From Candidatus Micrarchaeota archaeon (GTDB lineage: Archaea; Micrarchaeota; Micrarchaeia; Micrarchaeales; CABMGC01), in contig JAJZLJ010000023.1 of assembly GCA_021850625.1 (NCBI GenBank), positions 10,219 to 74,218 of the forward strand: DNA of 64,000 nt, written 5' to 3'. Positions 34,462-35,967 of the stretch are shown here, in pieces (positions within the stretch are counted from its first letter, which is position 1; each line of letters starts with the position of its first letter). Under the pieces are notes generated by a model, which saw nothing but the letters and a program-made list of their open reading frames with translations, was not told the DNA's origin and did not search any database. The position numbers and the translations under genes were made by a program.

Positions 34462-35604
34462 ATGAAGCTCATAATACTTCAACCATATCTTAATATAAAA
34501 GGGGGAGCTGAGCGTGTAATTCTTGAGATAGCACGCCATTACAATGCAAAAATACTTACTATGGAGTACAATAAAAATACAACATATTCTGAGTTTTCCG
34601 AGTGCGATATACAATTAATAGGCAAAAAAGTTCCTTTATCTGAACTGCTTCCTTACAGGGCTTCACAAGGTCTTAGATATGGATATAACTTCTATAACTT
34701 TAAGATAAAAGAAGAATACGATGTACTTAATTCGCACATCTCGCCAAGCGAGTGGATACGTCATAAAAATACTAATGTATTATGGTACTGTCATACCCCG
34801 CCGCGGGAGGTGTATGATCTATACTCTACAAGAATGAAAAATAGGACTCAAAAAGAAAAGATCCTTTATTCAAGCATGGCACATATTTATCGCCTGATAG
34901 CAAAAAGAACAGTAAAGAAAATAGAGAATATAGCAACCAACAGTAAAAATACCAGTACAAGAATAGAAAAGTATTTTTCAAGAAGTTCAACAATAATCCC
35001 TCCTGGAATCGAATATTCTAATTATGAGAATAAAAGTGATGAACATTTCTTTTTTTATCCATCTCGTTTTATAATAAATAAGCAACAAGATTACGTGATA
35101 AGAGCATTCAAAGTTTTTTGTTCGAAACGCAAAGACAATAAATACTCACTAATTTTAGCAGGTACATTATCTAATGATCCAGAGCATCTTAAATATATGG
35201 AATATCTAAAGACATTATCTAGTGGACTAAGAGTAAAAATATTGACAAATGTAGATGAAGAACGACTACGCAATTTATACAGTACCGCAAGCGCAGTACT
35301 TTTTGCAGCTAAAAATGAGGATTATGGATTAGTTCCTCTTGAGGCAATGGCAAGCTCTAAGCCAATAATAGCATTAAATGATGGAGGACCAACAGAAACA
35401 GTTATAGATGGAAAGACAGGATATCTTATTAATTCAGAACTCGAGATGGCTGAAAAGATGTTTATTCTTTCAAAAAATCCAACATTATCAGAAGCTTTAG
35501 GTAAAGCAGGCAGAAAACATATAATTAAAAATTACTCCTGGAAAAGTTTTTTCAAGAAATTGGATATACTCTTAGAAAAGACAAAAAATAGCAACACTGC
35601 TTAA
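34462..35604 (+). CDS. Glycosyltransferase family 4 (GT-B)
   Basis: MKLIILQPYLNIKGGAERV N-terminus and EDYGLVPLEAMASSKPIIALNDGGPTETVIDGKTGYL. The ORF is open from 34399; ATG at 34462 preferred. Confidence 0.8.
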   Translation: MKLIILQPYLNIKGGAERVILEIARHYNAKILTMEYNKNTTYSEFSECDIQLIGKKVPLSELLPYRASQGLRYGYNFYNFKIKEEYDVLNSHISPSEWIRHKNTNVLWYCHTPPREVYDLYSTRMKNRTQKEKILYSSMAHIYRLIAKRTVKKIENIATNSKNTSTRIEKYFSRSSTIIPPGIEYSNYENKSDEHFFFYPSRFIINKQQDYVIRAFKVFCSKRKDNKYSLILAGTLSNDPEHLKYMEYLKTLSSGLRVKILTNVDEERLRNLYSTASAVLFAAKNEDYGLVPLEAMASSKPIIALNDGGPTETVIDGKTGYLINSELEMAEKMFILSKNPTLSEALGKAGRKHIIKNYSWKSFFKKLDILLEKTKNSNTA

Positions 35605-35936
35605 TCTTTAATTTCAAGAACGTACTTTGATATTACCTTTGCAGCCATTTCAAGAACCTCTTTTATGTTCTTGGTGTTGTTTGAACCTGTGCATATTAAC
35701 TTTCCATTTTTGAACAATATTATTACTGCCTTAGGTTCTTTTATTCTATATATTGCTCCTGGAAACTGTTCTGGTTCATAAGATACCTCTCTTACGTTCT
35801 TAGTAAGGGAAAATAAATCTATATTTGCATGAAGATCCGCACTTACTACTATATTCTGTATTTTTATCTGTGGATTAAGCTTAGGTATCTTTACTACGGC
35901 ATTCTTTACATTTTTAGGTTTTGGCATATAACTCAC
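35601..35936 (-). CDS. tbp: Single-repeat TATA-binding-protein homologue (half TBP, C-terminal-repeat type)
   Basis: [20 protein letters not shown]...[33 protein letters not shown] matches one TBP repeat end to end. 111 aa versus about 180 aa for normal TBP. In-frame stop 12 codons upstream of the GTG. Confidence 0.8.
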   Translation of the reverse strand: [111 protein letters not shown]

Positions 35937-35956
35937 AATATTATTGTAAGCAAACC

Positions 35957-35967
35957 TTTTTAAATAT
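35957..35967 (-). promoter_or_regulatory. TATA-box-like element (ATATTTAAAAA on minus strand) for the half-TBP gene
   Basis: Centred about 26 nt upstream of the GTG at 35936 (35 nt from the ATG at 35927), inside the 37-bp gap after the preceding gene. Confidence 0.45.

Follow-up and report, generated by a model that had tools for sequence, protein, structure and literature searches.

A single-repeat TATA-binding protein of Micrarchaeota, a candidate homodimeric transcription factor

A one-repeat gene and its product

The subject of this analysis is a small gene on the minus strand of a 64,000-nucleotide stretch of Candidatus Micrarchaeota DNA (contig JAJZLJ010000023.1), referred to below as the window, whose product resembles one half of a TATA-binding protein (TBP). 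The probable coding sequence runs from a conserved ATG to a stop codon at 35601-35603 (35601..35927, minus strand) and specifies 108 aa. A longer open reading frame (ORF; 35601..35936, minus) that begins at a GTG (35934-35936) specifies 111 aa and adds three residues. The product consists of a Lys/Pro-rich N-terminal tail of about 19 residues (35871..35927, minus), recognized from alignments and low model confidence, and a single TBP repeat (35622..35870, minus) with the element order S1-H1-S2-S3-S4-H2, which contains the motifs IQNIV and ICTG. A first-pass annotation of this sequence had described the 111-aa ORF as exactly one TBP repeat with no space for a first one, and a hidden Markov model (HMM) search agrees: the ORF holds one PF00352 domain, not two, in a single match that places residues 23-105 on profile positions 1-85 of 85 (E = 3.7e-26; 91.2 bits against a cut-off of 22.9).

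Solved TBPs were matched at E values of about 2e-36 when the PDB was searched with phmmer, with little difference in score between the two lobes of a structure (1mp9, 64.6 and 61.9 bits; 2z8u, 60.9 and 66.3 bits). Identity to TBP repeats is 36-51%. Residues 9-99 of the query align to residues 90-179 of 2z8u, and the N-terminal tail falls on the inter-repeat linker of some two-repeat TBPs. The length and sequence of this tail vary across the family alignment, and its predicted local distance difference test (pLDDT) scores are 54-73. An AlphaFold2 model of the single chain, built from a deep alignment, has a pLDDT of 89.3 and shows the strand-helix-strand-strand-strand-helix order of a TBP lobe preceded by a disordered tail; a model built from a shallow alignment of 27 close homologues (pLDDT 44.6) was discarded. 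Foldseek fitted the model to one lobe of 1CDW, 1YTB, 1PCZ and 2Z8U with a root-mean-square deviation of 0.9-2.2 Å over about 84-90 residues and a query-based template modelling score (TMq) of 0.70-0.75. The targets are TBPs of human, yeast, plant and archaeal origin, and in each of them the superposed part makes up slightly less than half of the structure.

The motifs of the repeat are conserved in the family. Both Phe residues that the first-pass annotation had reported as kept, F58 and F75 in GTG numbering, are invariant, in the contexts EQFPG and ILFKNGK. The motifs IQNIV and ICTG are invariant or nearly so, and YEPEQFPG is invariant in 147 of 147 family members. We take the two Phe residues to be those that kink and intercalate into DNA, as established in yeast and Pyrococcus TBP structures; the Asn and Val of IQNIV and the Thr of ICTG to be minor-groove residues, as established in yeast and archaeal TBP-DNA structures; and the E-P-E of YEPEQ to be the acidic stirrup to which transcription factor B (TFB, or TFIIB) binds, as established in TBP-TFB structures. 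The TBP-like N-terminal domain of RNase HIII (PF11858, DUF3378) was also considered as an identity for the protein and rejected; its match, nested under that of TBP, reached 17.1 bits (E = 0.0063), where the gathering score is 27. Judged by sequence and predicted fold, the protein has every feature expected of a TBP repeat. It lacks the two tandem repeats per chain by which a TBP is otherwise recognized, since one domain was found here and likewise in 26 related genomes, and it is best described as an architectural variant of TBP.

The true start of the gene is probably the ATG at 35927, and the GTG chosen in the first-pass annotation is probably wrong. The ATG is favoured because a start of the form M(A/P)K occurs at its position in 27 of 27 orthologous loci, because public assemblies call exactly the 108-aa product (11 contigs), and because the spacing of the TATA box places the start of the transcript at about the GTG. 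This box, ATATTTAAAAA (35957..35967, minus), spans -31 to -21 relative to the GTG and lies 30-40 nt upstream of the ATG. It is located in a 37-nt intergenic promoter region (35937..35973, minus) between the TBP gene and a gene for a repeat protein. The sequence bears out what had been noted of this region at first reading, namely a same-strand gene (35974..37095, minus) ending 37 nt away, an in-frame TAG (35970-35972) 12 codons 5' of the GTG, and a TATA-like element that would give the gene a promoter of its own. At an equivalent position and distance, a TATA element (TTTAAAAGG, TTTATAAGG or TATATAAA) is present in all 27 orthologous loci. Four loci (L021, L023, L024 and L026) have a TTG as the apparent start, so that the product reads LAK for MAK, about 30 codons before IKIQNIV, and their distance to the TATA box is that seen in the species with a MAK start. 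Neither a TATA consensus nor its symmetry was definable from the 55 upstream regions of the window, which are too noisy at 34% GC.

The repeat had been read at first as an inter-repeat linker followed by a C-terminal repeat. That identification does not hold. HMMs were built from the first and from the second repeats of canonical archaeal TBPs, and the preference of each sequence for the C over the N model was scored in bits. Genuine N repeats come out at -15.5, genuine C repeats at +19.4 and the half-TBP family at -0.2 ± 2.1; the repeat is thus undifferentiated, neither N nor C. The two-repeat TBPs of Micrarchaeota and Iainarchaeota have lost N/C identity in both repeats (-2.6 and -1.4 bits).

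Conservation and two-repeat relatives

The 108-aa sequence recurs unchanged on 11 contigs that were assembled independently (ENA, NCBI and Logan), and the genes around it are the same in each. One genome from each GTDB species was scanned with 8-residue query patterns only, by which a divergent second TBP is undetectable, and the six-frame ORFs of the resulting loci were then searched with HMMs. A one-repeat ORF was found in 26 Micrarchaeota species, with a length of 103-147 aa stop to stop apart from one outlier. Every Micrarchaeota locus has one TBP domain, against two in 34 of the 34 non-Micrarchaeota archaeal loci from the same scan, and in nearly all of the orthologous loci in-frame stops lie a few codons 5' of the start. 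Protein searches returned a large family of one-domain proteins of 100-135 aa that are 65-93% identical, with named members labelled Candidatus Micrarchaeota, Micrarchaeia, Micrarchaeales and Micrarchaeaceae. JGI labels these proteins as TBP and PGAP mostly as "hypothetical protein". The implication of the NCBI naming is that tables of TBP presence and absence in DPANN genomes can be wrong.

Identity among 147 family members averages 82.5%, with a minimum of 68.5%. Between species the median proportion of synonymous differences (pS) is 0.79, which is saturated, and that of non-synonymous differences (pN) is 0.10; the median ratio of non-synonymous to synonymous substitution rates (dN/dS) is 0.078 where dS is finite. 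The gene is under strong purifying selection. In a neighbour-joining tree of repeats the half-TBP family is monophyletic (bootstrap 100); support at deeper nodes is 0-50, and no sister group was assigned from these unresolved nodes, although the trend is for the halves to fall within the Micrarchaeota TBPs. Taken together, the sequences identify the family as an old, lineage-wide group of orthologues at a single locus.

Some members of the family are unusual. A subgroup that includes P0112, P0179-P0181, P0093, P0119 and P0117, and loci L028-L030, L032 and L077 (labelled Micrarchaeaceae), is extended at the C-terminus by Lys/Glu-rich tails of 20-50 residues, in some cases with long N-terminal tails as well, up to a total of 173-174 aa, and still has one repeat. 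The most divergent member (L034:2521-3540; 64% identity) occupies the last part of a run of 340 codons free of stops; the sequence before it is of low complexity, bears no similarity to TBP and is probably the antisense of another gene or, less probably, an N-terminal extension. In L013 (DATJMH01), L018 (CAWHDF01), L020 (JAKBPE01), L023 (JAMCZF01), P0112, P0179 and P0182 the gene stands in its usual neighbourhood under odd taxon labels (the bacterial MAG names Saccharimonadales, Actinomycetota, Baltobacteraceae, Acidoferrales, Aquilonibacter and "bacterium", and also Marsarchaeota), probably by mis-binning or mislabelling.

The two-repeat proteins closest to the half family (among them P0040, P0243, P0280, P0299, P0320 and P0336) are 45-55% identical to it and are unusually symmetric: the identity between the two repeats of one chain is 60-93% (median about 73%), where canonical TBPs from the same data reach 36-58%. 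Named members of this near-symmetric group are labelled Candidatus Micrarchaeota, Anstonellales or Anstonellaceae, groundwater "CG" Micrarchaeota, Micrarchaeia and Iainarchaeum. All halves (100%) carry the signatures FPGA and FKNGK, as do 98-100% of the first and of the second repeats in the near-symmetric TBPs, but only a minority of canonical TBPs, most of which have FPGL and F.SGK. Because these signatures are common to the halves and to the two-repeat TBPs of the clade, the half-TBP is a derived member of the Micrarchaeota/Iainarchaeota TBP clade, and not a relic from before the duplication that gave rise to two-repeat TBPs.

In all 1,759 pairs of clade members that are no more than about 65% identical, the two repeats within a protein resemble each other more closely than repeats at equivalent positions in the two proteins do, and there is no positional signal. 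In P0299-P0302 the repeats are about 90% identical, and the second repeat of P0299 starts with AKRIKL, mirroring the N-terminus of the protein (MAKRIAL). This high similarity between the repeats of one protein, with P0299-P0302 as the extremes, indicates that the clade underwent repeated re-duplication or homogenization. Inter-repeat dS in six near-symmetric TBP genes is 0.6-1.2; the repeats of these genes diverged more recently than the half-bearing species, between which synonymous sites are saturated.

Proteins with more than two repeats were also encountered. Five proteins of 272-289 aa (P0190, P0213, P0220, P0241 and P0279), all encoded on short metagenome contigs, have three TBP repeats per chain, of which the first two are nearly identical in P0279; they may be genuine, or they may be artefacts of assembly or gene calling. 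P0339 (376 aa) and P0454 (329 aa) have four TBP stretches, are plant-like and repeat their core verbatim, and are probably duplications in gene models or assemblies.

Loci and neighbouring genes

The near-symmetric two-repeat loci are L007, L069-L075, L078 and L080. In seven of the seven two-repeat loci inspected, all from assemblies other than the 28 known to bear a half-TBP, the TBP gene lies divergently beside L21e-RpoF-DUF655. Further L21e loci were gathered by a metagenome scan with DUF655. Six of these have a two-repeat TBP beside L21e and nine have a one-repeat TBP, with ORFs of 92-151 codons stop to stop and a single high-scoring segment pair in tblastn; no second repeat was found in any frame of these nine. 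The one-repeat genes are located at L083:4591-4908, L088:10930-11220, L089:10882-11214, L091:2817-3269, L093:3066-3488 and L095:3042-3458 and, on the minus strand, at L096:150-533, L115:8237-8587 and L127:4843-5118. Their products are 42-52% identical to the window's family, fall outside it and form several separate groups, which means that one-repeat TBPs arose or persisted at least four more times. The half-TBP of L083 matches the repeats of the tandem protein P0299, encoded at L078, with 80-84% identity, and the DUF655 proteins of the two loci are 73% identical. This comparison of a half and a tandem at the same locus provides the strongest indirect evidence that a one-repeat TBP can replace a two-repeat TBP, a substitution that would need the one-repeat protein to act as a dimer.

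No locus of the window's own lineage was found among the DUF655 metagenome matches, the shared proteins being at most 54% identical in every case. In one contig of near-genome size (L123; JGI contig Ga0209426_1000005, 908,576 bp) L21e-RpoF-DUF655 is present without a TBP within 10 kb, and its DUF655 protein is 45% identical to the query.

In the window the half-TBP gene meets a convergent gene for a glycosyltransferase of the GT4 family (34399..35604, plus; Glycos_transf_1, E = 2.9e-28), with the 4-bp overlap at the TBP stop that had been noted from the first. This is the most conserved neighbour of the half-TBP, convergent at its 3' end in 24 of 27 loci and also in L076 and L077. The neighbourhood also includes AglB, a flavin adenine dinucleotide (FAD)-dependent oxidoreductase and the thermosome cluster, in 17-20 of the 27 loci. 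The upstream same-strand gene is a neighbour and not part of the TBP; its product (349 aa in the public call) has no Pfam match and contains about seven GYNYAPVYTPQ-type repeats, with hydrophobic segments near both ends. A tandem DNA repeat at 36495-36762 lies inside this gene, with a 39/78-bp period and 72-88% matches. The thermosome gene, intact in the window (37246-38901) and in other assemblies (548-551 aa), is split into 440 and 106 aa in one ENA assembly (L001:7027-8673), where a frameshift or an assembly error is likely.

A DRG-type GTPase gene (MMR_HSR1 plus TGS domains) lies 6-7 kb from the two-repeat TBP in L069 (2906-4003) and L071 (1926-3017). A gene of the same type is found about 4 kb from the half-TBP in L076 (14127-15230) and L077 (13757-14866), and also near it in L028, L029 and L034. 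Its presence near both types of TBP may be a remnant of a common ancestral TBP region.

A proposed homodimer and its alternatives

We place at roughly 0.6 the probability that the product functions as a general transcription factor, in the form of a homodimeric one-repeat TBP. Two identical chains would pair through their S1 strands to give the ten-stranded saddle that the N and C repeats form in a normal TBP. Each chain would contribute one DNA-kinking Phe pair and one acidic stirrup (YEPEQFPG), and the dimer would bind and bend the TATA box and recruit TFB. We infer dimerization, DNA binding, TFB recruitment and the status of sole TBP. Self-association has indirect support in the natural tandem fusions of near-identical units, such as P0299, and in the lack of N/C identity. 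In nearly symmetric archaeal TBPs, a role of TFB and the TFB-recognition element (BRE) in setting the direction of transcription is already known. A truly symmetric dimer would extend this role, since direction would then be set wholly by TFB reading the BRE. Over evolutionary time, one-, two- and even three-repeat forms would replace one another within the Micrarchaeota/Iainarchaeota TBP clade.

Canonical archaeal TBPs (Pyrococcus woesei 1PCZ/1AIS, Methanocaldococcus jannaschii 2Z8U and Sulfolobus acidocaldarius 1MP9) belong to the same Pfam family, and the half-TBP is 36-41% identical to each of their lobes. Common to both are the one-lobe fold, the Phe pair, the IQNIV/CTG residues, the YEPEQFPG stirrup and a TATA promoter of their own. 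The half-TBP differs in that it carries one repeat of about 85 residues in 108 aa, rather than two in about 180 aa, and has no N/C differentiation; its saddle would need a dimer, which if symmetric would offer two identical TFB-binding stirrups. With the near-symmetric TBPs of Micrarchaeota and Iainarchaeota it shares FPGA(I), LFKNGK and the loss of N/C identity, and some relatives of P0299 are themselves one-repeat proteins. The near-symmetric proteins differ in having two repeats per chain and in adjoining L21e-RpoF-DUF655, whereas the window's family lies between thermosome or FAD-oxidoreductase genes and the convergent GT4 gene.

Three observations weigh against a homodimer that serves as the only TBP. 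The half-TBP of the window's family was never found within 10 kb of L21e-RpoF-DUF655; it stands away from the ancestral L21e locus, where a two-repeat TBP may persist. The window and the 26 flanks that were searched for a second TBP make up a few percent of each genome. Finally, Supplementary Data 4 of Golyshina et al. (2017), a table that gives the count only, assigns two arCOG01764 proteins to the closed genome of Mia14, and two entries imply a second TBP-family gene at least in Mia14. The A_DKE annotation table includes neither TBP nor L21e among the roughly 600 genes that it lists.

These observations bear most directly on the alternative that survives best, although we regard it as unlikely: that, in line with the third option of the first-pass annotation, a near-symmetric two-repeat TBP is kept beside L21e and the one-repeat protein is a paralogue, serving as an alternative TBP or in regulation, where it might titrate TFB, cap TATA half-sites or enter mixed assemblies. 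The Mia14 count is in keeping with it, as is the location of the half-TBP gene away from the ancestral locus, which would be expected of a duplicated copy. There are also precedents: Halobacteria and Thermococcales have monopartite TBP-domain proteins in addition to their full TBPs (PMC3597702). The Thermococcales proteins (P. furiosus NP_578195) likewise stand alone, with a single TBP-fold domain in about 95 aa; they are described as distant from TBP, 49.6% identical on average among themselves, coexisting with a normal TBP and of unknown function (PMC3597702). By that description the half-TBP is set apart from them, as a bona fide repeat with all motifs, and membership in this class was rejected on its 36-51% identity to TBP repeats and its 91-bit PF00352 score. 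Halobacterial TbpA is also a single TBP repeat, and it clusters with true TBP repeats; it is a dispensable member of a set of several paralogues and closely resembles the full-length TBPs of its own species (PMC3597702). The half family differs from TbpA: its members are strongly constrained orthologues of long standing, found across the lineage at a single locus.

The degree of that constraint argues against an accessory role. The half family (82.5% mean identity, dN/dS 0.08) is more conserved than the sister two-repeat TBPs (about 67% identity at the same position) and far more so than the accessory monopartite proteins, and every DNA-contact and TFB-contact motif is kept. In other lineages it is a one-repeat TBP that occupies the ancestral locus, and the DRG GTPase near both two-repeat (L069, L071) and half loci (L028, L029, L034, L076, L077) hints at common ancestry of the two. 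A two-repeat TBP was not seen in the window, in the 26 flanks or among named Micrarchaeales proteins. In the window, tblastn and an unfiltered HMM search of six frames found no second TBP repeat; a weak tblastn match at 60013..60312 is a chance match to pyruvate kinase and was rejected. No other TBP gene was found within ±10 kb of the half-TBP in 26 genomes. Among 18 named NCBI matches there is no full-length TBP labelled Micrarchaeales or Micrarchaeaceae, labels that half-TBPs do carry.

A split TBP, in which the protein would form a heterodimer with a different half encoded by a separate gene at another site in the genome, had been offered as an option in the first-pass annotation and now appears improbable. 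Split genes are common in some DPANN archaea, and the Mia14 count of two could represent two half-genes. Protein searches, however, returned no second kind of half-protein: all half-size relatives found form one monophyletic and very uniform family, and in an exhaustive search of representative sequences the one-stretch matches of about 120-136 aa among the best 150 were all relatives of the half family, at 56-73% identity. The repeat has neither N nor C identity, each of 17 NCBI locus-tag prefixes occurs only once among the named half-TBPs, and there is no second half within ±10 kb in the 26 genomes.

The same early reading had coupled a homodimerizing single-repeat TBP, the option that fits best, to the postulated ancestral state, and the second part of that proposal does not stand given the clade-derived FPGA and FKNGK signatures. 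Survival of a single-repeat ancestor from before the N/C duplication would account for the one-repeat architecture and for the lack of an N or C signature; it is nevertheless a very improbable explanation, since the half-TBP is closest to the Micrarchaeota/Iainarchaeota TBPs and has derived signatures common to both of their repeats, since the two-repeat members of that clade have lost N/C identity too, and since one-repeat forms arose several times within the clade, beside tandem forms at the same locus. An artefact, whether tandem-repeat collapse (to which near-identical repeats are prone in short-read assemblies), a frameshift or a decaying pseudogene, is excluded by the same sequence in 11 independent contigs, the one-repeat ORFs of 26 species, which closely follow an in-frame stop and share a conserved TATA promoter and context, the dN/dS of 0.08, the absence of TBP-like sequence in other frames, and the DNA identity of only 68-86% between the repeats of two-repeat relatives, which are too unlike to collapse.

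TBP is the textbook pseudo-symmetric protein, thought to derive from a homodimer by gene duplication and fusion. To our knowledge the homodimeric ancestor has so far been only hypothetical. The half-TBP matches such a proto-TBP (PMC3597702, PMC12917281) in architecture and presumed quaternary structure, and differs from it in being secondarily derived. Brindefalk et al. (2013) found monopartite TBP-domain proteins only in Halobacteria and Thermococcales (PMC3597702), a structural paper of February 2026 still draws the "monopartite TBP prototype" as a hypothetical model (PMC12917281), and in reviews and DPANN comparative papers we came across no account of a Micrarchaeota TBP with a single repeat.

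We consider the chances about even that a Micrarchaeales-type clade, at the level of an order, uses a homodimeric one-repeat TBP as its only TBP for all transcription, and that one-, near-perfect tandem two- and three-repeat forms have repeatedly switched at the same locus across Micrarchaeota and Iainarchaeota. If so, nature would have re-run several times the duplication and fusion presumed to have created TBP, and matched pairs such as the L083 half and the L078 tandem would allow the effects of fusion and asymmetry to be tested. These natural proteins allow one to ask whether a symmetric dimer can bend TATA DNA and recruit TFB, how promoter direction is set without TBP asymmetry, and what is gained from covalent fusion. 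The half family would thus offer a natural model for the origin of the two-lobed TBP, as an analogue of the ancestor and not its survivor.

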